Part shown: positions 6,576 through 42,916 of the stretch, one piece after another
Numbering within the stretch: the first letter of the stretch is position 1
Layout of the letters: each line of letters begins with the position of its first letter
Assembly: GCA_910592345.1 (NCBI GenBank)
Contig: CAJVPI010000183.1
Span: 1 to 44,749 of the forward strand
Reading direction: 5' to 3'
DNA: 44,749 bases
Source of the DNA: Paraglomus brasilianum
Lineage: Eukaryota
Program-made: the position numbers and the translations under genes
Notes under the pieces: model-generated
Told to the model about the DNA's origin: nothing
Database searches by the model: none
The model's input: the letters and a program-made list of their open reading frames with translations, nothing else

Positions 6576-8992
6576 TTACTCTACTTCTCCAAATGTGATA
6601 TTGGTATAATATATAGTATTCCATATATCGTTATCTGACTCATTCTTGCTTATCCTTTCAATGAAACCATATATATAATTAGAAAGATCATAGTATGTTG
6701 GACGTTTGTCAGGATCAGCATCACAACACCGCCCCGCGAGTTCCTTGTAAGCCTCTGGTGCGGAATCAGGCATCACGGGTCGCAATCCACTTATAATATC
6801 GCATACTAGATCACTGTCAAATAATCTGTTTCTGAAAGGTGGTTCACCATTGGCAAATAAATACATAATAACACCAAAAGCATAAATGTCTGATTGCTGA
6901 GTAAATTTGCGAGTCCTAAAGACTTCTGGTGCAATAAAAGGTATGTTACCGTGAATAGTTGATTTACGTTCTGATGCCCGTGATTGTGAGAGACCAAAGT
7001 CACCTACTAATGTTTTAATTGAACCATCACTTCTGGTCTTAAACATGATGCTTCCACCATGAAGATTGCAATGTACCAATCCACAAAAATGTATTCCAAT
7101 CAGATTCCTCACAATACTCTTCAAAATCATTAATTTCATCTTCCATGTCATCTCATTAATATTCCGATTCAAATAAGATAAAATATCACCATTATCGGCA
7201 TATGGCAACACGATCATGTATTCGTTGGTCGCCGGTTGTTGTGTAACCCCGTAAATTTTAATAAAACAAGAATATCCAGTAGACTTGGCGTGATTCCTGA
7301 ACTATTATTAAATGAGGAATAAACAATAAATTGGTACAGTACAACTTGTCAGAGATTGCTTACCTCGTGAATAAGTAATTCCGGCATGTGATCAAAATTC
7401 TTAAAACGTTTGAGAACAACACGTTCTTGTTCTTCGGCAAGAAATCCGTTATAATTACGTCTGGCAGTATAGATTGTTCTACAACTATCAGATACGATCT
7501 CTTGAATTCTATCAAAGTTGGTGTATTGTATAAATGCCACCTGACCATTAGCTCGCATGAATCTATCCAATACTTCACGAATCCCACGGTAGAACACCAA
7601 ACAATAGTCATGGGTAGATGGGTTTTGAGTAATTCCAATAACCCAGATATTATCCGGTGTTAATATCTCTGGATAATGCTTACGCAGCTGTTTGAATAAA
7701 TAACATAAAAATCGTTGCTTGAAAACACGCGATTTGACATACCTTATAATATATACTTTTTTTATACAAGTGGAAACATTTACCTGATAGAAATCGAACG
7801 ACTGACTGTTCTGTCCATCAACTATCGTTTTGAATGTTACTTTTACCAGTGTATCCGTTGCTGGCTCTAACCAGATTGCTTCGTGAGTGCACCCATGATG
7901 TAATAATGTCGCCTCTTGTACATTCCTCAGTTGCGAATACTCTATCCATTGCATATGAGCATCAGCTTCACTCATCGTATCTCTCCATGATTCCATTATA
8001 AATGAATCCAGCAAATCGTTGCCGGTAGTCCAATCAAGAGGCCTTGATGTCTTACACCGAAAACAGAATGCAGCTATGTGAGGTACTAAATATTCTGCAC
8101 ATGCCAGACATGCACCGACTCTAGGTGTTTGTGTTATTAGACAATATTTTTGCTCCCCCGTATCGTATGTAAATCCAATAGTAATCCACTTGTCCAGATG
8201 CTGATCACACAACTGATAAAATAAAAAGCAGCATGTTAGGTCCAAAAGCCAATAAATATATTGTATAATTGAATAGTTTACCTCGTCATAATATGAATCG
8301 TCTGTCTCGTCTGTTATTTCGAGTGAAATCAGTTCAACTAATACATTACACCCAATACCAATAGATAAAGGTAGACCACGTAAGTTTGTTCCTGCTCCAA
8401 ACATGGGAGCGCCACGTCCAATGCAATCAAACGGAATCCATTCTAAATAGGCATCATTTGCTGACCCCGTTTGTATTTGCGACTTTTTAATAAACTCGTC
8501 GAGCTTTTTATTATTGCTAGTCCAAGTATTAGATAATTCTTTACGGCCACAAATGCACCACACTGGACTGCATCTGAATATTCCGCATTCAGAACAGAAT
8601 CCATATCGAGAGTAACAATATTGAAACTGTATTCCAGCAACCATGTAATAGTTGCTTTCATACTCGGTAAATCCCAGTATCATGCCGTTACGATAATTAA
8701 GCCATTTTGTATATCTTCTGAACTGATTGGGTAGAGTATAAACACGCTTGCATGTTGGAAGGGAGTGCTTTCTGGCAAACTCGTTTATAAATTCTGGTGT
8801 ACATTTGTCATCATTTCCAAGAAGTAACAGCATAAGCCGACGGGATCCTTGTCTGCAGCGAATGATTTGGTCAGCAGTGTCTTGAAATAACTCTACGTTA
8901 GAAAATTCTGAATAATAAATCCATCGAAGACTATAATATTCCTCCGGTAAAGAGGCTTGGATCAAGCTGTCGATTGCCTGATGTCCTGACAT
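6576..8992 (-). CDS. Cytoplasmic TKL-family protein A, about 729 aa, with repeated N-lobe/Cys modules; probable pseudokinase
   Basis: Exons 8992-8282, 8212-7784, 7687-7364 and 7301-6576; GT-AG introns of 69, 96 and 62 nt, all phase 0 and at the same positions as in paralog B. VVLK, DFG, APE and SDIYAFG are present. The catalytic loop reads HCNLHGGS and the Gly loop reads IVSDSC. Confidence 0.88.
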
Positions 8993-9070
8993 TTTTTGCG
9001 AAACTTCAAAGTACAAGGCTTTTTGTATCACACTACTTGAATTTTTTCACACTGTATACCATAATAAATA

Positions 9071-11880: not shown

Positions 11881-13119
11881 TACTTCATAACAACATAAGT
11901 GATTAACCTATCAACGCAACTGTCACAAAATATTCTATATTTCCGTATTGTCGGCAAATTTGCCTACAATTTGAATTCGCCAACAAAATCGCTTTATATC
12001 ACTTGCAACATATTCGTATGTAATCTGTTAGTCAATATTTGTCATAGATATTCTTATAAAAAAAAAAGTCTTATCCCATCAACTCTGAGTCACATCAGAC
12101 TCACAATACTTAATTCGTGAGTCGGCTCCATAAAGAAACAGATTTCAGTGAGGACATACGGAATATGATGTGAATCAGAGCAAGAAGAACGATAATAAAA
12201 GCTCTGAAGCAACAAAGCAGTAGAAGCAATGTAAGAGTTCAAGAAAAAGAAAGAATTGTGTGTAGGAGAGAGGAAGCAGGCGGGAAAGTATGACTTTAAT
12301 GGGCATAAGTGTCCGTCTTCAAATGGCCATTATTACTCAATGACTGCAGCTTAGCTCATTTAAATTCTAGGATTAGATGAATTATTTTTCTTAATGGTTA
12401 ACATGCATGCAAATAACATAGTGACATTGTTCTCAAAAATGCATCATAGAATTATGTGTCAAAAATTAGCCTACGGACTAAGGGATAATACACATCTATG
12501 TTAATATTTGCCATGTTACCGTTATATAATATGCGCCTTTAACTTGCAATTATTGTTCTGAAAGATTAAAGACAGTACACTAATGTTATATGAAGGAGAT
12601 ATATAATGACAAATTTGTGAGGCGTTGATACTGAAAGGTGAAAAAAGCTTACATGCTCATAGTCAGTAGGATGCTTAGGGTCTGCGTTGTTTACTTCGAG
12701 TAACTAACATTAGTACTTTTGTTTATTGTTACAATATGGCGCGCAATTTGTTTACTGTTCAACAAGCTTCCAACTCGGACGTACATTCCGCATCGCATAA
12801 CTTACTCCATGGGCAAAACTTTTTATTGGTCAATGTCAACAGATCTTGGGCAGTTAGTTAACACCCTCTACATGTAAGTAGATAGCTAAAATGGGCTTTA
12901 GCGAGCTCGGGATAGGTAGTTAACAATGGGTGCTTTCGTCAGCTTACCTCAGGTAAGTTAAAGGGGAGGTAGTGTTCATAAGCTCTTGCCAAATAAAGTG
13001 GAACGATTTCTTTATTGTTTGACAAATTATACATGTTATTGAATAAGATAAATAGCACGATTACTGAAAATGTCTTATTTCCCCCGCAGCTTTGATTGCC
13101 AGATCTGATAGCTGTATGT

Positions 13120-13211
13120 ATATGCACATGCATATATAGTTAGTTCACTTTCGATGATGCAATATGCACATGCATATATAGTTAGTTCACTTTCGATGAT
13201 GCAATATGCAC
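13120..13211. repeat. Perfect 42-bp tandem duplication
   Basis: ATATGCACATGCATATATAGTTAGTTCACTTTCGATGATGCA at 13120-13161 and 13162-13203, plus a partial third start. Confidence 0.95.
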
Positions 13212-13527: not shown

Positions 13528-13825
13528 ATCTCAACAAAAAAGCCACATCATTACTAAGAACGGTAATTGTAACGGGGAGTTGTTGGAATTACTGTTACTA
13601 CATTGCTTTCTTTTTCTAAAGCTACATGAATCGTAAGAGGCGTTAGTCAACCAATGGTCTTTCGTACTTTATTTGAGTATTATTATGGCACTAATGTTAT
13701 CTTTCGAAACCACAATATTACGCCATGTATCAATGTTTAACCTGTTTAAATTAGGTTCTATCAAATATTACCGATTGTTAAGATGCACGTTACTGCGAGT
13801 CCTGGTGTAAAATTATTACTACATT
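13528..13825 (+). repeat. Copy of the recurrent non-coding module (core GCGTTAGTCAACCAATGGTC)
   Basis: Collinear with copies near 20.6, 21.4, 23.2 (-), 28.6, 34.3 and 39.7 kb: TCTCAACAAAAAAGC..GTAATTGTAACGGG..TACATGAATCGTAAGAGGCGTTAGTCAACCAATGGTC..GAGTCCTGGT. Confidence 0.85.
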
Positions 13826-14824: not shown

Positions 14825-17800
14825 ATGTTCCTATTCACTATACAAAATCGCAACACATTTCTTCTTGCCCTTCCTACTCTTCTCAGTTTTCCTATATCTT
14901 CTAATTCTCAAATCTCTTCTCCCAATCCATATCCGGGACCGCGGGTTGATCATTGCGCATTCGCCTACAAAAACCGCTTTTACGTATATGGTGGTGTGGG
15001 CAATGTAAATGAGGGCAATGATAACCATTCCTACTTCAGTTACACCAATACGCCCTTCCATATAACAGATCCCAAATGGACTTCTCTGCCAGTAGCAAAG
15101 GCCACAAAAGTTAGTCGGCCAGCGTGCTCTGTTACATCAGATGGTATCTTATACGTGACTGGCGGAGCAGATCCAAGCGATAATAAGTATGCCGGCATTC
15201 AATCGTTTGATTTGAAAAAAAGTGCTTTGGGTTTCTGGGACACACCAAACACTAGGGGATTAAATACGAGTCAACATTTGTCACATCGACGTGGCCACAA
15301 GTCCATTGTCGTAAAAACGTTATCGGAAGAAGTGTTGTTTATCTTTGGAGGGTCTGAGTCGAACGATGCGTTTATTTTAAATGTAAAAAATTCAACTTGG
15401 GAGGCTGTACATACAGGGGTGAGTATGCAAATAGTAAAAGAATGTGAATGATTACGCTAGATCCATAGAGTATGGTGCGTTGATAAGTCAACCGTAGGCG
15501 CCTGTTAATGATAGTATGTCACATATAACTTGACATCCAGTTATTCTAATTATTCTCTGCCGTCATTCATCGTCTAGCCTGACGCTCCACCATCCATGGG
15601 CGCATTCGCCATAACTTCCTCTAAAGATAAAATCTATATCATTGGTACTCCCACCGAAGAGTCTGGCAGAAACCTGTGGGCATTCAATATTCCAAAGAGG
15701 AGCTGGTTTAATCCGCATATTACCGTGGATATTCCTATGAATGTCCACGTTGAGTGTGCAGGGACACTTAACAATACGATTTATTTGATTGATTCGGGTA
15801 ATTCGTCATTAATGTGGAAATGGAATTTGGGTGAGTTGAAATGAAAACGTAGTTACATATTGCACGAGTTGTTGCAAATTAAAAAATCTCATGTTTTGCG
15901 CGTTTTGAAAATAAATAGCTGATAAGAGCACAACACGCTTTACGCCGGATCGTACTGGGGCTGGCCTGCAGACTTATAACTATGCTTTTGCACAGTTGCC
16001 TGGCAGCGATGTTTTTATTGTAAGCTTCTCATACTTAAACATGTCTGTACCATTATTATAGTCTATTTATATTCCGCATATTAACTTCTATATTAACATC
16101 CACTTTCAAGACCTATGGCGGGAAAACCGGGGTCAAAGCAACCGATAGCTTAGCCGCATTCAACATGACCCAAAATGTTTGGGTCACTCAAGTCAACAAC
16201 TTAACTAATATACCCAACAATCAGGACCATTATTATTATGGGCTTCTTGCACCTGGTCAAGAAGATTCATTCCTGAAACCACCACTACCACAAAAGATAA
16301 CTGCGGAATATGGAGCGAATCTGAAATATTCTGATCATACCATCTTTATCTGCGGACTTTTAATACTAGCAGTGGTCATACTAGTGACGGTGGTCAAGGT
16401 CATAGTTTCACGCTTGCTTTTGTATAGACGGAAAGAATATAAAAAAAAGGAGGAGGAGCTGACCATAGTGGAAACTTGTGGGGCTTTTGGAAGCAACACT
16501 GAAACTGGTTCTCAGAGGGACAGTGTGACTTATCGACCACCCAATTTTGAAGCGTCTGATTTTCGATGCGAACATTACTCGATTTCGTCAGACACAGTTT
16601 CGGTTCCCGACTTTCAAATATCTGCAACTTCACGCCTTACGGTGAAACTGAACTCTACTCCCCCTACTCCATCGTCAATTGTAAGCGAGCTCCGTCGACA
16701 TAAAGTGACGTCCATGACATCCGAATCTTCATCTACTTCGATTTCTCCGTCGGCTCCAGAAGGTGCTATTCTAGATAAGTACAAACTCAAGGGGGAGCCA
16801 GCATTCGGCGTCAGCAAATCCGTTTGTTATGCAAAGGATGAGACTGTGAATGAAGACGTGATGGTAAAGTTTTTCTCAGACTATGATTCATTCGATCGCG
16901 AAGTTATGATGTTAAAGTTTCTTCGATCGAAATTCGTTGGTGCATTGCGCGGCGACGTATTCCATGTTTCCGATGCTGCTGATTGGAAATATGCTATGAT
17001 CATGGACTATTATCCTATGAGCTTGGATAACCTTATCGTTAGCAGAACCGAGACTATGGATGAATTATGCGTGAAGATAGTGGTAAAGTCATTAGCACAA
17101 GCAATACAGTATGTTCATAGTCACGGAATAGTGCATCTGGATATTAAGCCGGGAAACTTTGTACACGAGGTTGGAGACGTGAACAAATGGAGATTGATTG
17201 ATTTCGAGGCGGCAAGGGTTGACGGAGAAGAAGATGTTTATAAGAGTACATTAAGATATGCTCCGCGTAAGTATTGAGCAGTTATTTATATTATCGAGCC
17301 TTTGAAAGGATTTTGAATTCTGTGGCATACTGATTTTTTTTCTTCTTTAAACACAGCCGAACTAATCAATGTGGATGCATTGCGTACTAGTATTAAAGCA
17401 GATACATCGATGGACATGTGGTCGTTTGGGTGTACAATATATGAGTTGTATACTGGAAGTCCTCTGTTCTTAAATGATCAGGAGGCTACTGCTAAATTAT
17501 TGGACGCATATTATACGCGGCGCTTTGAATTTCCTGTTAAAAAAGTGCCTGACGTTCAGGCACAGCATGTACTTGAGAAGTTGTTAGTCATTAATCCTCT
17601 GAAGAGAGCTTCAGTTGAGGAAATTTTAAGAGGAGCATATTTGACTGGTGGTGCTGATAGCGCTCAGGTATATATATCATCAATTCTATTATTGCTGTTG
17701 CTGTCTGTCTCCCGCCGCTTGCAAACACTCACCTCATACTTTCTTGCTTTATAAAGATATACGAGATGCAGTCAGAATCCACCGAGAGAATCATCAACAC

Positions 17801-18559
17801 CCTAAACCAGAATACAAACGTTGTTCTTTCCAACATGCAAGAGGCCACTAATATGATATTGTCACAATTCGATGTGGTCGTGAATAGTATATCTGATACT
17901 AGAGATGCGAGCGTCCCCCGCTTGTTCATGTTATTACCAGGAAAAAAGCCTCACTCAGTGTTCAAGCCAAAGGCTTGGGGAAAGAATACATTCGTAGTCC
18001 ACATTCTTTGTGAAGGTCATGCTTCTGATAATAGCAAAGCCCATTTCACTGACCATCCTGGCTACATGGTATGTTTATTCAATGACATATGTTTTTGACA
18101 AGATATACAAAGCGGTTCGCACTTATTAATATTGTCTATATGTTTGTTCAGATACTTAATCCGAAACCGTTTCTTGCCAAGGTTGGCCCATACCTCTGTA
18201 TCTTGGCCACTCTCATAGGCTCGGCTGTCAGTTTATTTACAGGACTGCAACTGTCGGACAAAATAACAGCCAATATATCATCTGGCCCTATTGATTACTT
18301 TAGAAAAATAGGCGAAGTTATTGACGCAATAGAAACGGATGGGTCTGTTACAAGAGATTTAGCAGCAGTTCAGAACGATCCACTCAATAAGATGATATCA
18401 GCGCAAGGCCCTGCACTGCGTGAATTTAAAGCGTTCCTGTCTGATAACGATCCTTTGCGCGAATTCGGTGGATTGCATCGTATTACCATGAGTGATGGAC
18501 GATGGCGATGGGTTTGTGATAGTTGCAAGGAAAGAGCACATGGAAACCACGGATATTAG
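14825..18559 (+). CDS. Kelch-ectodomain receptor-like Ser/Thr kinase, copy 1, about 1044 aa: SP-Kelch-TM-kinase-C-terminal Cys/His domain
   Basis: Exons 14825-15418, 15578-15830, 15919-16019, 16111-17266, 17357-17667, 17757-18068 and 18152-18559 splice in frame with GT-AG introns (3135 nt). Start context is CACCATG and the leader is hydrophobic, ending SNS-Q. Kelch motifs: PRVDHC..FYVYGG, LYVTGG, RRGH..LFIFGG, FITYGG. TM: IFICGLLILAVVILVTVVKVIV then RRKEYKKK. Kinase: VMVK, HLDIKPGN, DFE, YAPPE (split by an intron), DMWSFG. Confidence 0.92.
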
Positions 18560-19261: not shown

Positions 19262-19650
19262 AATTTACTAGTAAAACATATGAAAAAACCTTTTGAAAAA
19301 ATCTCTCTTTCTGCAAACACTATACATGGCAATAATTTTTATATGGTTTTGAAACTAATTGACTGTGCTGTTTGAAAAAAATAACAGTAAATTTTAACAC
19401 ATTATTATAAAGTTGTAGCTAGATAAATTGTTATGAAATGATAGTTATATAAAAATATACTAATCCAGATACCTGTTATATGTGAGATTAATAATAATAA
19501 TCATTAAATTTTACTGTTATTTCTTTTTTCAAAAGTGCCGTCAATTACTTTCAAACCCATATAAAATTTATTATCACTTAGTAATAGTGTTTGCAAACAA
19601 GAGAGATTTTCGAAAAAAAAAAGTTTTTTCTTATGTTTTACTAGTAAATT
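19262..19650. mobile_element. Foldback/Mutator-like MITE with long imperfect TIRs
   Basis: About 145-bp arms, 19262-19405 and 19495-19650, for example AATTTACTAGTAAAACATA / TATGTTTTACTAGTAAATT and TGCAAACACTAT / ATAGTGTTTGCA. The spacer is about 90 bp. Confidence 0.8.
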
Positions 19651-20750: not shown

Positions 20751-21500
20751 TACGGAGACTGTGATACAACGATATATCGTATGTGTATTTCAAATATTCA
20801 TAATTAATTTGGAATAGCTTATAATGATGGCTATATACTTAGCCCGGGATAGAACGTAATATCCAATGACTATATAGATAGTTCCTTTTTTTCACGTATT
20901 TGATAAATGATGTTATATACATCACTGATATTGCACATCAAGGCGTAGAATTGAACATAAGTTGCTTAATGCAGAGGGGGGAGGATAAGGAAAATTTATT
21001 GGTTTAGAGACGTTTTAGTGTCGTTCTTTAAATGGTATGAATGATGTCGTAAGACCCAAAGGAAAGAAGGTGTGTGGTACTTGGGTGGTGGCCGGTATAT
21101 AAGATTTTCCAAAAAATCTACACAAAGAAATACACCTTAACGGGGCATCAGGGGAAAATTAAAAGAAGTTGGTGATATTACAAGTGATAGCGTTGAAATT
21201 GTACCTAGGTGCTTACGATTTTTATAACACAGATTAAAGTAAAGCTCACATTATAATTATAGTTCATGTTCACGTAAAAACGTATTTAACCTCGGAATAC
21301 CCAAGATTTGTAATTAGCCGATATTTTGTAAGTATCTTGAGCAAAAAAAAACTACATTACGATTATGTCATACATTAAAAACGACGGGAACAGTAATAGT
21401 AATTGTAACGAGTAGATATTGAAATTACTACATTGCCTTTCTTTGTTCCAAATTTACATAAATCTTGGGAGGCGTTAGTCAACCAATGGTCTTCCGTACT
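20751..21500 (+). repeat. About 750-bp direct segmental duplication of 27921-28650
   Basis: TACGGAGACTGT, CCGGGATAGAACGTAAT, GTCGTAAGACCC.AAGGAAAGAAGGTGTG, AAGAAGTTGGTGATATTACAAGTGATAGCG and CCCAAGATTTGTAATTAGCCGATATT are collinear in both. Confidence 0.92.
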
Positions 21501-21517
21501 TTATTCGAGTACTATTA

Positions 21518-22619: not shown

Positions 22620-24340
22620 CGTACAACAAAACTGATGATGTTGATTTGGACTCTAATGTTCAGCGACAATATCTTCATCATACGAAATCCAATACTTACT
22701 AGCCTCGTTCTTGAGTTGTTGGAATCGGATGACTGAAGGACATCAAATCAGGGACCGTATCACATTGGACTTGCCATTTAGGTATGCTAATAATGAAAAT
22801 AGGTCATTGTTTTAATGGAAATGACGGTCGGTAATTCCATTCACACACAAAGCTTCTATGACAAGGTTTGCCACTGAATTATTCAGCATTGTCGCTATAA
22901 TAATTGTGCCATTTTTTATACCAGGACTCACTCGCAGAAATATGCATCTTAGCAATCGATGGCAGATTTTTGCAGCAGGTAATACAGTCAGCTGATTTGA
23001 CATAGTCAAAATTCTGATATTCGCGGCTAATATTAAGAAGAACCTAATTAAACTGGTTAACACATTGATACACAGCATGTGGGATAGTTCATATCATCGC
23101 CGGCAATACTATAATAGTAAGACAAATGTACTCTAACAAAGCAGTTACAAATGACCATTGGTTGACTAACGCTTCTTACGATTCATGTAAATTTAGAACA
23201 AAGAATGCAATGTAGTAATTCAATATTTACCCATTACAATTACTGTTCTTGGACAATCCCGTAATTTAATGTATGACATAATCGTAATATCGCTTTTTTG
23301 TTGAGACATCTAAGCCCCTTACTAGTTGTCCACTCGGATTATTCGCTGGTTATTAACGAGCGTCTTACAAAAAAATGCAAACTACAACGTGCGATTACTT
23401 TAATCTGAAGTTTATTGTGCCACACACGCTACATCTAGCTCATAATTTATGATAACAGATAAGCCGTAATCTGTAATTTCAATATTTTTCACAGTAATAT
23501 TGCTTTAGCTGAGTTATCTGAAGAGTTTCATGGGTTTGAAAAACGGTTCTGTTTTAACCAAAACAAGCAAAATGTCTGCAAATACTAATTTTAATACTCA
23601 AAAATACAAATAATTCAACCAAACCAAGATTTGAAACTTTAGGATCATGCTCGTATTTCTGTTGGATTGTTTATTCAAACATGAACAATATTATAGCGTG
23701 AACTCCATAATAGCATATATGGTAAACTTGCTGCTTATGATTGCATCTGGAATTCTCAAAATTTGAAAGGCTAATATGAATGTTGACAAATATACCCTGC
23801 AAGTGAAAACTCTTTATCAAAATAATGGATATATCAATCGTTATGATATATAGGATCCCAATATAACAGCGACAAATCTTAATGGTAACGGGAATGCCCC
23901 TACTTGTCAATAAAGCTATCCAGCAGCAATTGTTTCTTTGATTGAAATGCAACTAGTTCAAAAATTCTAAATTGATATTATCTTGTTGCTCGAACAATTG
24001 CATAACCTCGGCAGCTTTGCAGGCTTTCCATCAAGACTGGTTGCAAGCTACCTTTTTTTTATACAAGTTTGCTGTTCTTCAGTGTATGTTTTTTCTTCTT
24101 GTCAGACATAGCTGACGTTCTGCGCGTTTGTTAAAGATTTCCTTTAATAGACTTGGCTTTCTATAAATTACGTTTCTACATGTTAAATATTCATTGTATA
24201 CCCTATTGACCAACCAAACAACCATATTAATCCGTCCTCGCAACTAACGCGAGTTACTATAAAATTTCATTATAATAATAACGAACGATTTTAACTGTGA
24301 CCAAAAAGAAGTTCTTTTGCAATGCGATTCCATTCTAACG
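22620..24340 (-). repeat. Inverted copy of the module region 38800-40245
   Basis: Reverse-complement matches include GGAAATGACGGTCGGT, CCAGGACTCACTCGCAG, TAAGCCCCTTACTAGTTGTCCACTCGGATTATTCGCTGGTTATTAACG, GACATAGCTGACGTT and TAACGCGAGTTACTAT. Confidence 0.92.
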
Positions 24341-27920: not shown

Positions 27921-28720
27921 TACGGAGACTGTAATGCAGCGATAACGTTTATCGGAAAGGCTCTTATGTGCATTTCAAATATTCATAATAAATTTGGAAT
28001 GGTTTATGTGCGGCTTAAACTAAATCGTCATATGTGAAATAATGACTATATACTTACCCCGGGATAGAACGTAATATTCAATGACTAGATAGTTCTTTTT
28101 TTTTTTTTCCCACGTATTTGATAAATGATGTTATATACATCATTGATAAAGAAAATTATTGGTTTGAGATATTTTATTTTTTAAGCCAATAAGAAACATG
28201 AACATAATGTTGTTCGTTATATTTCTTTAAATGGTATGTTTTTTTATTGACGGAATAATGTCGTAAGACCCGAAGGAAAGAAGGTGTGCGATGCTTGGGT
28301 GGTGGTGGTATATAAGATTTTCCAAAAATTAAAAGAAGTTGGTGATATTACAAGTGATAGCGATGAAATTGTACCTAGGTGCCTACGGTTTTATAACACA
28401 AACTAAAGTAAAGCCCACATGTTCATGTAAAATGTATTTAACCGCCGATGAATACCCAAGATTTGTAATTAGCCGATATTGTGTGAAGCAAGTCAAGCAA
28501 AAAAACTACATTACGATTATTATTATGTCATACATTAAAAACGACGGGATCGTCCAAGAACAGTAATTGTAACGGGTAGATTTTGAAATTACTACGTTGC
28601 CTTTCTTTGTTATAAATCTTGGAGGCGTTAGTCAACCAATGATCTTTCATCTGTTTTACTATTATAATAATACAATAATATGAACTATCCCACATGTATA
28701 GTACAATATTACTGTTTGGC
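27921..28720 (+). repeat. Duplicate of 20751-21500 running into a module core, upstream of receptor kinase copy 2
   Basis: Collinear with 20751-21500. The core GCGTTAGTCAACCAATG is at 28625, followed by ATGAACTATCCCACATGTAT. Confidence 0.9.
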
Positions 28721-29608: not shown

Positions 29609-32600
29609 ATGTTCCCATCCACTCTGCATAATCCCAACACATTTCCTTCCGTCTTTCTTCTTGCCCTTCTTACTCTTCTCAGTTTCCCCATCTCTTCTAA
29701 CTCTCAAACCAGTAATATCGATCCAGCTCCGGGACCACGGAGTGATCACTGTGTATTCGCCCACAATGGCAGCTTTTACGTATTTGGTGGTGTGGGCAAT
29801 GTAAATAAGGGCAATGATAACCATTCCTACTTTAGTTACATCAAAGCGCCCTTCGATGTAACAGATCCCAAATGGACTTCTCTGCCAGTAGCAAAGGCCA
29901 CAAAAGTTAGTCGGCCAGCGTGCTCTGTTACATCAGATGGTATCTTATACGTGACTGGCGGTGATCCAAGTGATAATAAGTATGCCGGCATTCAATCGTT
30001 TAATTTGGAAAAAGGTCAATCGGGCACTTGGGACACACCACCAAAAACTAGGGGATTAAATACGAGTCAATATTTGTCGCATCGACGTGGCCATAAGTCC
30101 ATTGTCGTAAAAACGTCATCGGGAGAAGTGTTGTTTATCTTTGGAGGGTCTGAGTCGAACGATGCGTTTATTTTAAATGTAACAACTTCAACTTGGAAAA
30201 CTGTAGATACAACAGGGGTGAGTATGCAAAATAGTAAAAGAATGTGAATGATTACGCTAGATCCATAGATTATGGTGCGTTGATAAGTCAACCGTAGGCG
30301 CCTGTTAATGATAGTATGTCACATATAACATATGAGATTAATTTGACATCCAGTTATTCTAATTATTCTCTGCCGTCATTCATCGTCTAGCCTGACGCTC
30401 CACCATCCATGGGCGCATTCGCCATAACTTCCTCTAACGATAAAATCTATATCATTGGTACTCCCACCGAAGAGTCTGGCAGAAACCTGTGGGCATTCAA
30501 TATTCCAGAGAGGAGATGGTTTAATCCGCATATTCCCGTAGATATTCCTATGAATGACGTTAAGTATGATGCAGGGATATATAACAATACAGTTTACTTG
30601 ATTTCGTCATCGTCAATGTGGAAATGGAATTTGGGTGAGTTAAGAGTGAAACGTTACACGAATTGATACACAGTACTAATCCGAATTTCGCGTAGTTGAT
30701 AACCATACTGATACACAAGCCCGTACTGGTCTGCAGACTTATGATTACACTTTTGCACAGTTGCCTAACGGCGCTGTTTTTATTGTAAGCTTCTCATACT
30801 TAAAGGATGTCTAGTCTATACCATAATTATTATCTCCTGCATATTAATAATTAACTTCTATCCATTCTCTCAAACTAATTTCAAGACCTATGGCGGGAAA
30901 ACCGGCTCCAAAGCAACTGATACCTTAGCCGCATTCAACGTGACCCAAAATAATTGGGTTACTCAAGTCAATAAACCCGATCTTCCCCATGATCCTCCCC
31001 AAAATCCTCCCAATGATCCTCCGAATACCGGTATCAACAACAACTACAACAAAGTTATATTAGTATTAGAATGTGGAATACCGCCGTTAATACTATTGGC
31101 GGGCATAGTTTCAGGCTTGTGTTTGTATAAACGGAAAAAAAATAAAAAAGAGGAGGAGGAAGAGCTGACAATAGTGGAAACTTGGGGGGCCTTTTTTGGA
31201 AACAACACTGAAACTTTTCAGAAGGACATTGAAACTGGTTTTCGGAAGAGTGCTGAAACTGATTCTCAGAGAGACAGTGTACAGATCTATCGACCACTCA
31301 ATTTTGAAGCGTCTGGTTTTCGACGTGAACGTTGCTCAATTCCGTCAGACACAACTTCAGTACCCGACTTTCAAACATCCACAACTTCACATCATACGGT
31401 GAAACCGAACTTTACCCTCCCTACTCCATCATCAGTTGTAAACGAACTCTGCCCTCGATATAAAGAGACGGCTTTTCCATCGGCTCCAGAGGGTACTATT
31501 CTATCTAACCGATACAAACTCAAGGGAGAGCCAGCATTCGATGTCAGCAAATCCGTTCGTTATGCAAAGGATGAGACTGTGAATAAAGACGTGGCGGTAA
31601 AGTTTTTCTCAAACAAAGATTCATTTGATTGCGAGGTTAAGATGTTGAGATCTCTTCGATCGGACTTTGTTGGTGCGTTGCACGACGCATTTGACATTTC
31701 CAATCCCACTTATTGGAAACATGCTATGATCATGGACTATTATCCTATGAGCTTGGATGTCTTTATCCTTAGCAGAACCGATAGCTTGGATGAATTGTAC
31801 GTGAAGATGATAGTGAGGTCATTGGCACAAGCAATACAGTATGTTCATAGTCACGGAATAGTGCATCTGGATATTCATCCTGGAAACTTTGTACACGAGG
31901 TTGGAGACATAAACAAGTGGAGATTGATTGATTTTGAGTCGGCGAGGGAAGATGGAAAAGAAGATGTTGATATCAGTACATTGGGATATGCTTCGCGTAA
32001 GTAGCATTCTACCGAGCCTTTGAAGGAATATTTATTTCCGTAACATACTGATTTTTCTTTCTCTTAACACAGCCGAACTAATCAATGCAAGTGCATGGGG
32101 TACTAGTATTAAAGCAGATACATCGATGGATATGTGGTCGTTGGGGTGTACGATATACGAGCTGTATACTGGAAGTCCTCTGTTCTTAAATGATCAGGAG
32201 GCTACTAATAGATTATTGGGCGCATATTATACGAAGCACTTTGAATTTCCTGTTAAAAAAGTATCCGACGTTCAAGCACGCCACATACTCGGGAAGTTGT
32301 TGGCCGTTAATCCTATGGAGAGGGCTTCAGTTAAGGAAATTTTAAAAGGAGCATATTTGACTGGCGGTGCTGATAGCGCTCAGGTATATATATCATCAGT
32401 TCTACTATTTTTGTTGTTGTCTGTCGTCTGCCGCTTGCAAACACTCATCTTATGCTTTCTTGCTTTAAAGATACGCAATATGCAGTCAGAATCCACCCAG
32501 AGGATCATTAACACCGTACACCAGAGTACGAACGTTCTTCTTTCCAACATGCAAGAGGCCACTAATATGATATTGTCACAATTCGATGTGGTCGTGAATA

Positions 32601-33266
32601 GTATATCTGATACTAGAGATGCGAGCGTCCCCCGCTTGTTCATGTTATTACCGGAGAAAGAGTCTTACAAAATGTTTAAACCATACGCTTGGGGAAAAAA
32701 TACATTCATAGTTCACATTCTTTGTGAAGGTCTCATTGCTGATAATAGCGAAGCCCATTTCACTGACCATCCTGGTTACAAGGTATGTTTTGCCAAAAAC
32801 GTGCGAATACGATGTTTTCAATGCAGTCGCGTTTATTAACAAGACCAATATTTTGTTACAGATATTACATGCAAACCAGTTTCTTGCCAAGGCTGGCCCA
32901 TACCTCTCTATCTTGGCCACTCTCATAGGGGAGGCTATCTGTTTGTTTACAGGAATAAGAAAAATCCCTTTTAAGACAGACATCGACAGGATAGTGTCCA
33001 ATCAAAGTAAATACTTCAATCAATTATGTGAAGCTATTAACCAGGTAGAAACAGATAAGTTTGTTGCAAGCAATCTAGAAGCAGAACGTGATCCAGTGGA
33101 GTGGATGAAATATGCACAAGACGCTGCACTACGTGAATTTAAAGCGTTCCTGGAAGTGAATGATCCTTCGGGCGAATTCGGTGGATTGTGTAGTATTACC
33201 ATGCGTGATGGACGATGGAGATGGGTTTGTGATAGTTGCAAGGAAAAGGCAGATCACGGACATTAG
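29609..33266 (+). CDS. Kelch-ectodomain receptor-like kinase, copy 2, about 1026 aa
   Basis: Exons 29609-30217, 30391-30634, 30696-30784, 30886-31996, 32073-32383, 32471-32782 and 32862-33266 (3081 nt), with the same intron positions and phases as copy 1. It has a signal peptide, Kelch GG motifs, a Pro-rich stalk and TM VILVLECGIPPLILLAGIVSGLCLY then KRKKNKK. Kinase: VAVK, HLDIHPGN, DFE, YASPE. C-terminus: PRLFMLLP..HILCEG..WRWVCDSC. Confidence 0.92.
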
Positions 33267-33849: not shown

Positions 33850-34720
33850 TAACAGAATGCATTCAATAAGTAAGTAAAACCATAACAAGTAAGTAATACA
33901 AACAAAGAATAGCGTTATACAATTTTCGGGCCAAACAGTTAGTAAACCATGCTACTAACCGAGTAAACACTTTGACTCATTGTGAGTTAAAGCATGACGA
34001 ACAGGAGCCCGGAGTTTCAAATTTTTGCCTTTTGATCATGAGAAAATAAATTAACACGAGACTGTTTTATTATTATCAAACCATCATATAAATATTACCG
34101 TGAAATTACAGATTACGACTTATCATGATAAGATGTTTAGCACGATAAATTCATCACGCTGCGGTTTGAATTTCCCTGACGGGGCTTAGATGTGACATCT
34201 CCCAAAGTATCTCAACAAAAAAGCCACATTACGTTTATGTCATACATTAAACAAGAAGAACAGTGATTGTAAGGGGTAATTACTACATTGCTTTCCTTGT
34301 TCTAAATTACATGAATCGTAAGAGGCGTTAGTCAACCAATGGTCTTTTGTAATTGCTTTGTTCGAGTACATTTGCTTTACTAATATAGTATTGATATTAT
34401 CTCCGAAACCACTTGCGGTTTAACATGATGATATGAACTATCCAGCATATGCTTGAACTATCCCACATGTATAGTACAATGTTACGCCATTACAATTATG
34501 CCATGTATTGATGTTAATGTGCTAACCCCGGTTTAACTTGGGTATTACTGCTACTTGCTTGCAGCAAATATCTGCCGTCGGTTGCTAAGATGCGAGTGAG
34601 TCCTGGTGTAAAAAAGGCACAATTGTTATAGTGACAATGTCAGTGGGGATGGTATTACGTCATTTCCATTAACGATTATTTAACGTTAACAATGACAAGC
34701 TAGTGTGATACGGGCTGTCC
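33850..34720 (+). repeat. Module copy between receptor kinase copies 2 and 3
   Basis: Core at 34325; collinear with 39.2-40.2 kb and, inverted, with 22.75-23.6 kb. Confidence 0.85.
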
Positions 34721-35241: not shown

Positions 35242-38146
35242 ATGCTCTCGTCCACCATGCATAATTTTAATACATATCCTTCGGTCTTTCTTCTCTCCAT
35301 TCTCACTTTCCTCATTTTCCCCATCTCTTCTAACTCTCAAACCGATCCAGCTGGACCACAGATCAATTACTGTGTATTCACCTACAATAGCAACTTTTAC
35401 GTATTTGGTGATGAGGGCAATAATAACCATCCCTACTTTGTTTACACCAATACGCCCTTCGATGTAACAAGTTCCCCATGGAATTTTACGCCAGTAGCTA
35501 ATGCCACAAAAGTCTTTCGACCAGCATGTTCCGTTACTTCAGATGGTATCTTATACGTGACTGGCGGAGTAGACATAGACAATGGTAAATACATCGTCCA
35601 ATCGATTGATTTGAAAAGCAGTATTTTGGGCTCTCGGTACACGCGTCAATGTTTGTCGAATCAATGTGATTTTAAATCTATTGTCGTAAAAACGTCATCG
35701 GAAGAAGTGTTGTTTATCTTTGGAGGGTCTGAGTCGAATGATGCGTCTATTTTAAATGTAAGGAATTTGACTTGGGAAACTGTACCTAATGGGGTAAGTG
35801 TGCAAAATAGTAATAGAATGAGATTGATTACATTAGATCCATAGATGCTGATAAGTCAACCGTAGGCGCGCCTTGTTGATGATAGTAATTTTTTCTCTCT
35901 GTCATTTATCGTCTAGCCTGACGCATCGTTCATAGACGTACACGCTATAACATCCTTTGAAGATAACATCTATATCATAGGTACTCCAACCAAAGACTCT
36001 GGCAAGAGCATATTAATATGGGCGTTTAATATTCCGAAAAGGAGCTGGTTTAGCCTAGATACTACCGTGAATCTTTTTGCGAATGACCAGAATGCGTATG
36101 CAGGGATTCAGTTGATTAATTCGGATGATTTGTCATTCTCAGTGTGGAAGTGGAATTTGGGTGAGTTGGAATGAAAACGTAATTAGACTAATTGAGAGCA
36201 AATCTCATGCTAATCCGAATTTCGGCGTTCGAAAAATAGCTAATAATAGCGCAACATTCCTTGGGACGAACGGGTACCCTTTTGCACAGTTGGCCGATGT
36301 TCTTATTGTAAGCTTGTTATATTTAAAACATACCTGCACCATAATTATAATCTATTTATCTCCACGCATGTTGATCTCTATCCATTTTACCTCCAATTTC
36401 AAGGTTTATAACGGTGATTATGATAGCTTAGCCGTATTCAACATGACCAAAAATGCTTGGGTTATTCAAGTCAACAACGCCACCGGCGTACCCACCACCA
36501 GCCCCAACGACCCCAACGACCCCAACGGCCCCAACGACCCCAACGACCCCAACGGCCCCAACGGCCCCAACGACCCCAACGACCCCAACGAACTTTCCAC
36601 ACCGGTTCAGTCAAAATCTTTGCCGAATATTATTGGTGCAGTTGGAGTATTGGTGGTTCTAGTGGGCATGGGCTTGTTCTTGCATGGCCGGACCAAAAAT
36701 AAGAAAAAGAATGGGGAGCAGCCGGCAATAGCGGAAACTGATGCGGCATCTGAAAGCAGCATCGAAACTGGTTCTCAGAGAGACAATTCAGAGATTTGTC
36801 AACTACCTACACTTGAAGTATCTGGGCTTCAAAATGAACATTATTCATTTTTGTCCGATACTACTATTAATATGAACAGTTCGCTGATTTATCAATCAAA
36901 AATTGAGCATTGTTCATTTTTGTCCGACACTACTGTAGTATCCGACTTCTCAACATCTCCGACTTCACATCGTACAGTGAAACTAAACTCTACTCCCCCT
37001 CCTCCATCGTCACGTATAAGCGAACTCTATACTCAATATAAAGTGACAACTATTACATTCACTGCTTCTCCATCAGCCCAATCGGATGCAATTATATTCA
37101 ACAAGTACAAACTCAGCGGCGGGATGCCAACGTACGATGTCAAGAATTCTGATCGTAACTCTGTTCGTCGTGCAGAGGATGAGACTATGCATGAAAATGT
37201 TGCGGTAAAGTTTTTCTCAAACAAAGATTCATTCGAGCGTGAGGTTGTCATGTTGAAGCATCTTCGATCGGAATTTGTTTGTGCATTGCGCGACGTATTT
37301 GACATTTCCAATTGGAAATATGCTATGGTCATGGACTATTATCCTATGAGCTTGGATAACTTTATCATTAGTAGAACCGGAACCACGGATAAATTATACG
37401 TGAAGATAGTGGTGAAATCGTTAGCACAAGCAATCAGTTATGTTCATAGTCACGAAATAGTGCATCTGGATATTAAGCCGGGAAACTTTGTCCACGAGGT
37501 TGGAGATGTGAACAAGTGGAGATTGATTGATTTTGAGGCGGCGAGGGTCAATGGAGAAGAAGATGTTGATAGCAGCACATTAAGATATGCTTCGCGTAAG
37601 TAGTGAGAAATATTGAAAAACCATGATTTATATTCGAGCACTTGTAATTTTTACTCATTAATATGCAAACTTACCTTTTCCTCCTTACACAGCTGAAATA
37701 ATCAATGCGGCTACATTGCATACTAGCATCAAAGCAGATACATCGATGGATATGTGGTCGTTAGGGTGTACAATGTACGAAGTATATACTGGAAGCCCTC
37801 TCTTCCCAAATGAACAAGAGGCTAATGATAAATTATTTGAAGCATATGATACAAAGCACTTGGAATTGCCTCTTGATAATGTAGAGGATATTCAAGCAAG
37901 GCATGTACTCGAGAAGTTGTTAGTCATTAACCCTATGAAGAGAGCTTCAGTTGGGGAAATTTTAAGAGGAGCATATTTTCATGGTGGTGCTGATAGTATT
38001 CAGGTATATATATATATATTGCTATTGTCTGTCGCCTGCTGCTACCGTCTGCAAACACTCACCTCTCTTATTATAATGATTTAAAGATATACAATCTGCA
38101 GTCAGAATCCGAGAAAATCATTAACATCCTAAACCAGAGGTCGTGA
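35242..38146 (+). CDS. Kelch-ectodomain receptor-like kinase, copy 3, about 808 aa, truncated just after the kinase; may be a young pseudogene
   Basis: Exons 35242-35793, 35917-36160, 36240-36307, 36404-37595, 37693-38003 and 38087-38146 are open in frame. TM: IIGAVGVLVVLVGMGLFL then HGRTKNKKK. Kinase: VAVK, HLDIKPGN, DFE, YASPE. A deletion of about 64 nt in exon 6 gives ...LNQRS*. Several Kelch GG motifs are degraded (YVFGD, VYNGD). Confidence 0.8.
36503..36592 (+). repeat. Coding 9-bp tandem repeat, 10 units of CCCAACG(A/G)C (last unit CCCAACGAA), encoding a (PND/PNG) stalk
   Basis: Reads PNDPNDPNGPNDPNDPNGPNGPNDPNDPNE between the last Kelch blade and the TM helix. Confidence 0.95.
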
Positions 38147-38189
38147 ATAGTATATCTGGTACGAGAGACGCGACTGTGCCGAGATGATT

Positions 38190-38659: not shown

Positions 38660-40245
38660 ATTTGGAAAGGCGTTGAAAGCAATATTCTTGAGTTTCTATG
38701 TCAGCCTTATTATTATGCTGGCAGTTTTTATATGTCACTTCAAACAGAGCCTGTACATGTATTTAGCCAAAATCCAGCTCGTTACAGTTGAATAAGATCG
38801 CATTGTAAAGGGACTTTTTTTGGTCGCAATTTTCATATATTAAAAATCGCTCGTCATAATGGAATTCATAGTAACTCGCGTTATTAGCTATAAAGGAATT
38901 TTTGTTGAATCAGAAATGGATGAAGACGGATCAAATTCAAACATTAATATAATCGATTGGACGTTTCGCACGTAATTTATAGAATGTCTAAGGCTAAGTC
39001 GATTAAGTGGGTATCTGTAAAAAACGCACGGAAACGTCAGCTATGTCTTGACAAGGAGAAAAAAAATACACATCAATGAACAGCAAACTTGCATCCAAGC
39101 ACAGAATTAAAGAAAAAAAGAACGGTCTTTGCAATCTTGATATCAAAAAAATGTGAATATATGCTCAGTTGGAACGTAATCGGCCTTCAAAGGAGATTGG
39201 GTTGAAGAATATAATCAATCCATTTCTAAACTCATAATATGTAAGGAATAGCATTATACAATTTTGGGCTAAATGGTTAGTAAATCCTGCCATTAAACGA
39301 GTAAACACTTTTGACTCATTGAGAGTTAAAGTTTGAATAAACAATACGAATATGAGCCGTTGTTAAAAGTAAATACAAGTTTAATTAATATTAATAGGGG
39401 ACTGTTTATCAAACCCATGAAACTCTTCACATAACCCAACCAAAGTACTATTACTGTGAAAATATTGACATTACAGATTACGGCTTATCTGTTATTATTA
39501 TAGCATGTGTGGCACAATAAACTTCGTAATCGCACGTTGTGGTTTGCATTTCCCTGTAAGACGTTCGTTAATAACCAGCGAATAATCCGAGTGGACAACT
39601 AGTAAGGGGCTTAGATGTGACGATGTTTTGTGGCATCTCAACAAAAAAGCGATATTACGTTTATGTCATACATTAAAATTACGGGATCGTCCAAGAACAG
39701 TAATTGTAACGGGTAAATATTGAAATTACTACACTTGCATTCTTTGTTCTAAATTTACATGAATCGTAAGAAGAGTTAGTCAACCAAAGGTCATTCGTAA
39801 CTGCTTTGGTAGAGTACATTTGTTTTACTATTATAGTATTGATATTATCTTCCGGCGATGATATGAACTATCCCACATGTATGGCACAATATTACGCTAT
39901 GTATCAATGCGTTAACCAGTTTTAAATTGGGTTCTTCTTAAAATTAAGCCGCGAATATGTCAAATCAGCTGACTATATTACCGCTATTTGACTTGCTGCA
40001 AAAATCTGCCATCGATTGCTAAGATGCATATTACTGCGAGTGAGTCCTGGTATAAAAAATGGCTGAATAATTCAGTGGCAAACCTTGTCACAGAAGCTTT
40101 GTGTGAATGGAATCACCGACCGTCATTTCCATTAAAAGCAATGACCTATTTTCATTATTAGCATACTAAAATGGCAAGTCCAATGTGATACGGTCTCTGA
40201 TTTCTGAATATCAAATCATATGATGAAGATATTGTCGCTGAACAT
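38660..40245 (+). repeat. Longest copy of the recurrent module, between receptor kinase copy 3 and TKL B
   Basis: Contains all the blocks seen in the other copies, with a variant core GAGTTAGTCAACCAAAGGTC at about 39773. Confidence 0.88.
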
Positions 40246-40545: not shown

Positions 40546-42916
40546 TTATGTGTAATAGATGGTATTCCATATATCATCAGGCTTATCCCCACGTATATCT
40601 TTAATAAGGTTCTGAATACGTAAAAAAAGTTCCTCGCATGTTGGACGTTTCTTGGGATCAGCATTACAACAACTCTCGGCAAGTTTCTTATAAGCCGCTG
40701 GTGCTGAATCGGGCATTGTAGGTCGCAGCCCACCCAGAATATCGCATACTAAATCTCTATCGAATGATCTATTCCTGAACGGCGGTTCACCACTGGCAAT
40801 TAGATACGTAATAATGCCAAATGCATATATGTCTGATTCTGGAGTAAATCGACGAGTGATGAAGGCTTCTGGTGCAATAAAAGGTGAAACACCTTGAATG
40901 GTTGATTTTGACATGGACGACTTTGATCGTGACTGACCGAGATCGCATATGAAAAGTTTGCTTGTGTTGGGCTCGCTGAAAATTATATTCCCACCATGGA
41001 GATCACAGTGTACCAGTCCTCTGTCATGGAGATCATTCAGATGGATGGCAATATCCCTCAAACACGACAATTTCATCTCCCATGTCATCGCGTTAATATT
41101 TTCATTCAAATAAGACAAAAGGTTACCACCTCTAGCATATAGCATTACGATCATGTATTCTCCTGTCACCGGTTGCTGTGTAACTCCATAAATTGGAAGG
41201 AAATGAGTATCCGAACACTTGGCATGATTCCTGAACTATTAATGAAAGATAACGTCAAATAAATATCGCTTTAATAAATTATGGCTTAACAATTCGGAGA
41301 CTATACCTCGGAAATAAATAGTTCCGGCATCGGGTCAAAGGTTTTAAAGCGCTTGAGAACAACGCGTTCATGTCGATCGATAGGAAATACGTTTATGTCG
41401 TGTTTGGCAGTATAAATTGTGCTATAACCGCCAGATCCGATCTCTTCGATTCCATAAAACCTGTTGTATTGTATATAATTCACATCTCTATTATTTCGGA
41501 AAACTTTTGCCAATATTGTATATATCTCGTTATATAATACCAAACAATAGTTGTGGGTAGATGGTTCTTGAGTGAATCCAATAACCCAGATGTTATCCGG
41601 GGTTAATATTTCAGGATAATCCTTAGTTAGCTATGTTGAGTATATAATGTAATCATCGATTAAAAACACAGGCAATAGCAAGACTGTGATTATTTGAAAT
41701 ACAATGCTTACCTCATAAAAGTCAAATAATTGATTCTTCTGTCCATCAACTATCGTTTTGAATACTACGTTTATCGATCCATTCAATGTTGGTTCTGGCC
41801 AATCGGCTACATGTGTGCAGCCATGGCGCAGTGATGTTGCCTCTCGTACATTCCTCAAATGTGAATACTCTATCCATTGCAAATAGGGATCATTAATCTC
41901 ACACACGTTACTCCATGATGTCGTTATAAATGCATCCAGAGAATTGTTGCCGGTAGTCCAATCAGGAGGTCTTGCTGCTTTACAGCAATAACAGAATGCA
42001 AGTATCTCGGGTTCTAATTCTGATGTACATGCCAGGCATGCTCCATCATTGCTTGGTCCTCTAATTATAATTAGACAATATTTTTTGTTTTCTGTATTGT
42101 ATGTAAATCCGATCGTATTCCAAATACTTGTGATAAGAATATCTGGATGTTTATCGCACAACTATTAAATTAAACATTATGTTAAGTCAAGAATAGTCTA
42201 TAAGTATCATATGTTCACAACGGAATAATTACCTGGTCGAAATATGAATCATCTATCTCATCGGTTATTTCAAGTGGAACTACCCTCGCGTAACAGAATG
42301 CGGGTAGACCATTTAAGTATGACCAAGGCTCACCACAACTAAGACAATCAAATGGAATCCATTCCAAATAGGCTTCGTTTGCTGAGTTGGTTCGTATTTG
42401 TGACTTTTTAATAAACTCATCGAGTTTCTTGTTATTGCTAGTCCATCCGTTGGATAATTGTTTATGTCCGCAAATGCACCACACTGGACTGCATCGGAGT
42501 ATCCCACATGCGGAACAGAATCCATAGAGAGAGTAACAATCTTCAAACTTTCTATCGGCAACCATATAATAGTTATTGTCGAGTTTGGTAAATCCTTTTA
42601 TCATGCGGTTGCGACAACTAAGCCATCTTGCATATCTTCTGAACCGATTAGGTAGAGTATCGAGCTTACATTTGCGTGTTGGGAGTGAGTATTTTCTGGC
42701 AAACTCACTTATGAGTTCCGATGTACATTTCTCGTCATTGCCGAGAAGTAGCAGCATTATTTTACATAATCCTCGTTTGCAATGGATGATTTGATCAGTA
42801 GTGTCTTGAACTAACTTTATGTTAGTGAACTCAAAATGAGAAACCCATGTAAGACTATCGTATTCTTCGGGTAAAGAGGATTGAATCAAGCTGTAAACTG
42901 CTATATTTTCAGGCAT
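40546..42916 (-). CDS. Cytoplasmic TKL-family kinase B, about 715 aa, with repeated N-lobe/Cys modules
   Basis: Exons 42916-42233, 42161-41712, 41630-41307 and 41235-40546; GT-AG introns of 71, 81 and 71 nt, all phase 0. Motifs: IGSGGYSTIY, VVLK, alphaC Glu, HCDLHGGN, DLG, APE, SDIYAFG. Confidence 0.9.

Follow-up and report, generated by a model that had tools for sequence, protein, structure and literature searches.

A predicted Kelch-type receptor kinase of Paraglomus brasilianum with a C-terminal module homologous to the tail of bacterial Roco proteins

In animals, a protein kinase and Roco-associated parts share one chain in DAPK1 and LRRK2, which keep the Roc and COR domains and end in a death or a WD40 domain. 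The prokaryotic leucine-rich repeat (LRR)-AP-GTPase(Roc)-COR proteins are predicted "counter-invader" proteins. Behind COR, at least 24 different domains can take each other's place, either effectors, including enzymes such as TIR and caspase, or EAD adaptors; most of the named ones are enzymes (Kaur et al., 2021; PMC8195603). The plant LRR-Roc-COR protein TORNADO1 has a role in leaf patterning and none known in defence (PMC4104024). The plant proteins XA21, FLS2, and EFR combine an LRR ectodomain, a single membrane helix, a juxtamembrane linker, and a kinase of the non-arginine-aspartate (non-RD) type (PMC3411088). Here, we describe a gene of the arbuscular mycorrhizal fungus Paraglomus brasilianum in which a predicted Kelch ectodomain is followed, in one chain, by a non-RD kinase and a C-terminal tail of the bacterial Roco type. 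The gene (copy 1 of three tandem copies) occupies positions 14825–18559 on the plus strand of the window, that is, the whole stretch of 44,749 nucleotides (nt) analyzed here (contig CAJVPI010000183.1 of assembly GCA_910592345.1).

Copy 1 comprises seven exons (14825–15418, 15578–15830, 15919–16019, 16111–17266, 17357–17667, 17757–18068, and 18152–18559) with an open frame of 1044 amino acids (aa), and all introns are of the GT..AG type. The encoded parts follow each other in the order of putative signal peptide, Kelch propeller, transmembrane helix, Ser-rich linker, kinase, and the product of exons 6 and 7. The putative signal peptide (14825–14908) has a counterpart in the N-terminal hydrophobic stretch of six of the seven homologues, the seventh being a partial model. 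The Kelch beta-propeller ectodomain (14930–16200), which extends from exon 1 to the start of exon 4, matched Pfam families PF24681 (E 2.2e-17) and PF24981 (E 2.3e-14). A single transmembrane helix (16339–16407; hydropathy 3.13) is followed by a basic stop-transfer cluster, with 8 Lys/Arg among the next 21 residues. In all seven proteins compared, N-glycosylation sequons were denser before the transmembrane helix (1.2–3.2 per 100 aa) than after it (0.3–1.0). A likely signal peptide, an ectodomain, one transmembrane helix, and a cytoplasmic kinase, which make up the feature set of a single-pass receptor kinase, were all found by sequence criteria. The topology was read from hydropathy, sequon bias, and the basic cluster; on this basis, it is highly probable that the product is a single-pass surface receptor. 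The deposited protein P0005 (1074 aa) is 100% identical to our model on exon 7 and carries 30 additional N-terminal residues. Its model begins at a 9-codon upstream exon (12926–12952), which places the signal peptide 30 residues inside the protein; the paralogues favor the ATG at 14825.

The protein kinase domain (16771–17640) is split by intron 4, and its two exons matched Pfam PF00069 with E values of 2.5e-13 and 1.8e-11. Its catalytic-loop motif, HLDIKPGN, is of the non-RD type, and the kinase motifs were found in all nine homologues. The beta-3 Lys, the alpha-C Glu, HxD..N, and the Asp of the DF motif are kept, and on these motifs the kinase may be active. With XA21, FLS2, and EFR, the fungal protein shares the ectodomain, the single membrane helix, the juxtamembrane linker, and the non-RD kinase (PMC3411088); however, it has a Kelch instead of an LRR ectodomain, Leu before the catalytic Asp, DFE, and an added C-terminal module of 240 residues. 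The likeness is one of layout, and the fungal kinase is not placed in the RLK/Pelle/IRAK family.

Exons 6 and 7 encode an amphipathic helix of 45 residues (17760–17891), a candidate oligomerization element, and an unnamed domain of approximately 185 residues (17916–18556), here termed the Roco-tail domain. The module is separated from the kinase by an 89-nt intron (17668–17756) and is itself split by an 83-nt GT..AG intron (18069–18151); both introns are in phase 0. The sequence-only reading had proposed that the sensor, the kinase, and the tail sit in one chain, and this was borne out by a single open spliced frame, by RNA contigs, and by the architecture of the relatives. The RNA contig X2 crosses the kinase/tail junction over 279 nt with one mismatch, skipping exactly the 89-nt intron, and X4, from a rhizosphere metatranscriptome, crosses the same junction over 244 nt with two mismatches. 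The two contigs come from two studies, and X2 was classed as RNA by the guess of the tool. In addition, one X3 contig skips intron 4, and a second X3 contig links the end of exon 6 to letters unique to the exon 7 start of copy 2; splicing of intron 6 of copy 1 was not directly sighted among the RNA contigs. The Kelch-kinase-tail architecture was found in four genera of Glomeromycotina, namely Paraglomus, Ambispora, Cetraspora, and Racocetra, where its other carriers are P. occultum, Ambispora gerdemannii, Cetraspora pellucida, and Racocetra persica. Because the spliced contigs span the junction and four genera share the architecture, the kinase and the tail are truly fused, and an artefactual gene model joining two genes was ruled out. 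Thus, the receptor gene is real, transcribed, and ancient within Glomeromycotina.

Comparison of P0005 with P0045 and P0050 showed an identity of 51–61% for the helix and both ends of the tail, 48–49% for the kinase, and 41–42% for the Kelch domain. Since the tail ends are better conserved than the kinase and the Kelch domain, the tail has been under long-term constraint. The number of copies in P. brasilianum was drawn only from database matches (P0005, P0006, P0008, and copy 2). A separate observation concerns a metagenome paralogue (L179, positions 1–1239) that has kept only the start of the kinase, which continues in frame directly into the helix and the tail; a frameshift further upstream points to a pseudogene or an assembly error.

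The motifs quoted in the sequence-only reading all lie in exons 6 and 7 (17757–18559). In copy 2, the helix, PRLFMLLP, LCEG, HFTDHPGY, and WVCDSC are kept, and FGGL.RI reads FGGLCSI. The proposed kinship with the domain that follows COR in bacterial Roco proteins was upheld by reciprocal profile matches. A profile built from six Paraglomus tails only gave matches in one of five cyanobacterial genomes and then in 11 of 251, with a best per-genome E value of 9.2e-12. Nine of these 11 matches were the last ~190 residues of long frames, one had an internal stop, and one was a 63-residue fragment. Pfam identified LRR-Roc-COR-A-COR-B in three of the four long frames scanned, and the COR part in the fourth, a frame cut by a contig end; over the tails of these four frames there was no Pfam match. 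A mixed profile matched in 22 of the same 251 cyanobacterial genomes, in 6 of 251 genomes of a second phylum, and in 2 of 401 of a third; tail profile searches gave no match in five single genomes or in 201 genomes of an archaeal phylum. COR was located upstream of the bacterial tail in all 12 loci scanned, all 41 non-fungal rows, and all four long frames, and no bacterial carrier other than a Roco protein was found. Two proteins in the PMC8195603 supplement, WP_096566542.1 (1268 aa) and NEO85545.1 (1127 aa), which were linked to our profile matches by organism and length, are described there as LRR-repeats+AP-GTPase+COR with the tail unnamed.

The reverse test gave a consistent picture. A profile of 20 bacterial tails scored 55.7–76.4 bits on all nine fungal proteins, the best score among 1800 shuffled tails (1146 scored) being 7.9 bits. 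Translation of the window in six frames gave 793 segments, among which this profile ranked the exon 7 and exon 6 frames of copies 1 and 2 highest (E 4.7e-16, 2.1e-15, 5e-4, and 0.023). Alignment of the fungal-only with the bacterial-only profile by hhalign had a probability of 99.5% and an E value of 1.1e-22 over 172 columns. The motifs P-x-x-F, Cys-E/Q, Tyr, Pro, L-R-x-L/F, Asp, G-G-L, and W-x-C/H are kept in this order, and a long amphipathic helix precedes the domain in the fungal as in the bacterial proteins. On these comparisons, we regard it as virtually certain that the fungal helix and tail are homologous to the module that ends bacterial LRR-Roc-COR proteins.

The fungal and bacterial proteins thus share a homologous helix and ~185-residue domain, as well as the succession of a repeat sensor, a switch, and the tail. 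They differ in that the fungal protein has no LRR, Roc, COR, or Cys4 ribbon and ends in CxxC, not CxxH; its sensor is a Kelch propeller predicted to be extracellular, across the membrane, and its switch is a kinase. The Roc GTPase (PF08477) was found neither in the Pfam lists of the fungal proteins nor in the exon scans, and full bacterial carriers gave E values of 1e-20 to 1e-25. COR (PF16095, PF25497) was absent from every fungal row, where the tail begins directly after the kinase exon. Of the 39 long bacterial rows, 38 have a Cys4 ribbon ahead of the helix, and in the fungal proteins the kinase end occupies that place. Filing the protein as a Roco was therefore rejected, as it is without Roc and COR and carries the Roco-type tail only. 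The same absence of Roc-COR, together with the bacterial-type tail, separates it from DAPK1 and LRRK2, which it resembles in joining a kinase to Roco-associated parts. TORNADO1 is a cytosolic Roco, for which, unlike the fungal receptor, no ectodomain, membrane helix, or kinase is described (PMC4104024). The sequence-only reading also linked the tail to TORNADO1 and to Mortierella LRR proteins, a link that may hold; among the matches from protein searches that depend on shared exact words, there was no plant or Mortierella sequence.

The tail alignment contained 73 rows, nine fungal and 64 bacterial, many of the latter closely related. In a tree obtained by a quick method from 69 of these rows, the nine fungal tails formed one clade on a very long branch (2.9). 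Because the neighbors of this clade were flagged as possibly false, we claim neither a donor nor a direction of transfer. Five short isolated frames of 63–98 aa (L144, L165, L172, L174, and L175) hold only the C-terminal piece of the tail and are probably relics of broken Roco genes.

Family and structure searches did not assign the tail to a described domain. Pfam gave no useful match on exons 6 and 7 (best E 0.078), and among the 20 bacterial tails it matched one to a coiled-coil family and none otherwise; NCBIfam gave no family for the tail. The only PADLOC match among the 20 bacterial tails (JAB, E 7e-4) was taken as chance, and a plasmid match in tblastn (E 0.7) was discarded, being antisense to an unrelated frame. 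None of the 24 candidates that came from a pattern scan of genome contigs was a relative. A search of the PDB by sequence gave no useful match (best E 0.011), and with a model based on the 73-row alignment the best Foldseek E value was 0.47 and the best VIA-align Z was 4.6, to helical hairpins covering residues 109–168 only. An MLKL/HeLo-type four-helix bundle was not among the matches listed by the two programs. This absence of a clear fold match in the PDB does not prove a new fold. In the full-text literature, with most subscription journals outside its scope, no paper was found that names the tail domain or a Kelch-kinase-tail receptor. As far as these searches extend, the domain appears to be without a name or family model, and no description of the receptor architecture was found.

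It had been suggested from the sequence that zinc is bound by the Cys of LCE together with a His and the CxxC at the end of the domain. The comparison makes this likely and adds that the four positions are conserved as a set. In copy 1, the first half of the candidate site (18009–18056) comprises a Cys codon at 18009, a His codon at 18042, and a second invariant His at 18054, and the second half is the CxxC at 18515–18526, mostly CxxH in bacterial tails. Cys85 (tail numbering) is present in all 64 bacterial and in eight of nine fungal rows. His residues at +11 and +15 from Cys85 (His96 and His100) occur in 9/9 fungal rows and CxxC in 8/9, the remaining row being truncated. In the bacterial alignment, 47 rows end in CxxH, and each of these has a His seven residues after Cys85; six further rows could not be scored at the C-terminus. 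The four-ligand set is thereby complete in 47 of 64 bacterial and seven of nine fungal rows, the two others being a model without the Cys85 stretch and one cut before CxxC. An AlphaFold2 model from the 73-row alignment reached a mean predicted local distance difference test (pLDDT) score of 76.9, with a predicted template-modeling score of 0.69 and pLDDT of 85–93 over both ligand-bearing segments; an earlier fold with six sequences was unusable (pLDDT 44). In the model, Cys85 lies at a strand end and Cys226/Cys229 at a strand-helix turn. Taken together, these data argue for a structural CHCC zinc site in the tail, which we regard as likely. In one bacterial Roco-tail clade (L134, L137, L140–L142, and relatives), Cys-His-Cys-His is replaced by Cys-x-His and His-x-x-Phe/Tyr, which makes it a natural variant of the candidate metal site.

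Residues 2–45 of the module form one helix in the model. Its median hydrophobic period is 3.66 in the nine fungal and 64 bacterial rows, near 11/3, which would fit a right-handed coiled coil with an 11-residue repeat; a heptad period (3.5) is disfavored. Four positions of the tail module (S44, S46, T98, and T166) are Ser/Thr in at least eight of nine rows and are candidate phosphosites. One spliced frame thus leads from the Kelch propeller through the membrane helix and the kinase to the long amphipathic helix and the tail, and the last two are homologous to the bacterial module, here without Roc, COR, and the Cys4 ribbon. Beyond these findings, the following mechanism can be proposed. The propeller would face outside and bind a ligand, most likely microbial or plant-derived. 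Ligand binding would cluster the receptors, and the non-RD kinase would phosphorylate its neighbors, taking the switching role held by the GTPase in Roco proteins. Zinc bound by Cys85, His96 (or His100), Cys226, and Cys229 would link one end of the domain to the other, and the helices of 11-residue period would bundle, display several tails, and bind a downstream partner, as Death, TIR, and EAD adaptor domains do. Our confidence is evenly divided on this reading of a one-chain receptor whose tail likely binds one structural zinc and acts as output by clustering and recruiting partners; for an adaptor-type output as such, it is likewise balanced. The word "effector" used for the tail in the sequence-only reading derives from the position of the domain, and the function suggested here is also read from that position. 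The Roco context, the non-RD motif (PMC3411088), and the tandem turnover hint at a role in immunity, although none of them is specific.

The tail could instead be a cell-death effector that, once phosphorylated and oligomerized, inserts a hydrophobic hairpin into the membrane in an MLKL- or HeLo-like manner, so that a single chain would act as an immune receptor at the surface and either kill a hyphal compartment or seal it off. The tail does fill the effector slot of the predicted counter-invader Roco proteins (PMC8195603), the kinase is non-RD, the copies are in tandem with fast turnover, and the model predicts a helical hairpin, one arm of which is a hydrophobic helix (tail residues 108–134; 18161–18241) with a 19-residue hydropathy of 1.89 in P0005. 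However, this arm is weak in most relatives, with values of at most 1.54 in the eight other fungal rows (one of these gene models is without the segment) and a median of 1.16 in 62 bacterial tails, 3 of which reach 1.6 or more; the true membrane helix of the receptor has values of 2.08–3.13 in seven proteins. The most conserved tail residues surround the Cys/His and GGL motifs, and the hairpin region (residues 951–1020) is the least conserved, with 16–61% identity. We consider a death effector unlikely. The earlier suggestion that the hydrophobic segment could act at a membrane is weakened as well: with high hydropathy in P0005 alone among the fungal rows, a standing membrane anchor is unlikely, and a second standing transmembrane helix in the tail was rejected on the low hydropathy in relatives; insertion upon a trigger may still occur. 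It is improbable, in our view, that the tail is a small enzyme or a nucleotide- or lipid-binding domain with a pocket formed by the metal and Tyr103, Arg194, Asp204, and Trp224. Such a pocket would agree with the conservation of Tyr103 in all 73 rows, of Arg194 in 9/9 fungal and 53/64 bacterial rows, and of Asp204 in 9/9 and 57/64, with one bacterial clade that keeps only Cys, His, and His, as three-ligand catalytic zinc sites do, and with the named domains of the slot being mostly enzymes (PMC8195603). The fungal and most bacterial rows nevertheless have four protein ligands, which points to structural zinc. Four protein ligands are typical of such sites.

A regulatory or localization module, which would hold the kinase (in bacteria, Roc-COR) as a dimer or in the off state without any downstream partner, would leave room for a receptor serving development or nutrient sensing instead of defence. 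In agreement with this, helix and tail occur as a pair in fungi as in bacteria, the frame of the tail-less copy 3 is still open through the kinase and is matched by an RNA contig, and TORNADO1 works in leaf patterning, with no known part in defence (PMC4104024). We give this possibility little credence, and the occurrence of the tail after unrelated switches, a GTPase-COR and a kinase, is easier to reconcile with an output that stands on its own than with a clamp specific to one switch. The adaptor-type reading has difficulties of its own. The third tandem copy has lost the tail domain, and the tail module of copies 1 and 2 shows a ratio of nonsynonymous to synonymous divergence of 0.73, indicative of weak constraint (kinase, 0.49; Kelch region, 0.77). 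DFE replaces DFG in all nine kinase rows, the catalytic-loop Lys is H or Q in three of nine, and the glycine loop is degenerate in P0005. The microbe-sensing non-RD kinases of plants typically have Cys or Gly before the catalytic Asp (PMC3411088), and the fungal kinase has Leu. The helix period of 3.67 is indistinguishable from the ordinary 3.6 (power 0.053 vs. 0.050). Finally, the zinc site is not universal, as 11 of the 64 bacterial rows are without the four-ligand set, with an HxxF/Y end and no His at +7; these rows form one clade, so the joint change of both halves of the site counts as a single event.

For the perception of the host and of bacteria by arbuscular mycorrhizal fungi, this receptor-kinase family provides a concrete candidate. 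The well-conserved tail sits at the output end of bacterial LRRK2-like proteins, and a soluble piece of 240 residues with four candidate metal ligands is directly testable in both kingdoms. More broadly, and only tentatively, arbuscular mycorrhizal fungi might possess a plant-style family of surface immune receptors, in which a Kelch ectodomain and a non-RD kinase are combined with an output domain of new fold, tied by zinc. The output domain, shared with bacterial Roco immune GTPases, would then rank with TIR and Death as a signaling or death module that crosses kingdoms and has been attached to GTPases, kinases, and repeat proteins alike, and the receptors would let the fungus sense bacteria or its plant host.

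Copy 1 is followed on the plus strand by two further copies. Copy 2 (29609–33266) is an intact paralogue of 1018 aa with seven exons as in copy 1, its tail exons being located at 32471–32782 and 32862–33266. In copy 3 (35242–38189), the ectodomain, transmembrane helix, and kinase are open; exon 6 is 67 nt shorter and out of frame, and the rest of the tail is absent. An X3 contig carries the unique 3' letters of copy 3 and looks spliced, with 51 letters between the anchors (59 expected if spliced and 142 if unspliced); the gap of eight letters from the spliced expectation is unexplained. Copy 3 is a candidate tail-less regulator or a young pseudogene. Between copies 1 and 2, the proportion of synonymous differences was lower in the Kelch region (0.13; 14825–15830 against 29609–30634) and the helix (0.09) than in the kinase or the tail (0.22–0.23). 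Intron 1 is almost the same in both, and gene conversion between the two copies is possible. The extracellular stalk is wholly different between copies and contains short repeats rich in Pro, Asn, and Asp (30975–31030 in copy 2 and 36500–36590 in copy 3).

Elsewhere in the window, two paralogous multi-exon kinase genes (Pfam PF07714) lie on the minus strand at 6576–9046 and 40546–42916 and are 71% identical over 2345 nt; their N-terminal Cys-rich regions matched no Pfam family. A dispersed family of non-coding repeats, present in both orientations (13556–13685, 21330–21517, 23076–23547, 28474–28712, 34181–34402, and 39281–40203), sits upstream of or between the receptor copies. An imperfect palindrome of ~390 nt at 19262–19650, 73% identical to its own reverse complement, resembles a miniature inverted-repeat transposable element, and an exact head-to-tail duplication of 42 nt occupies 13120–13203.

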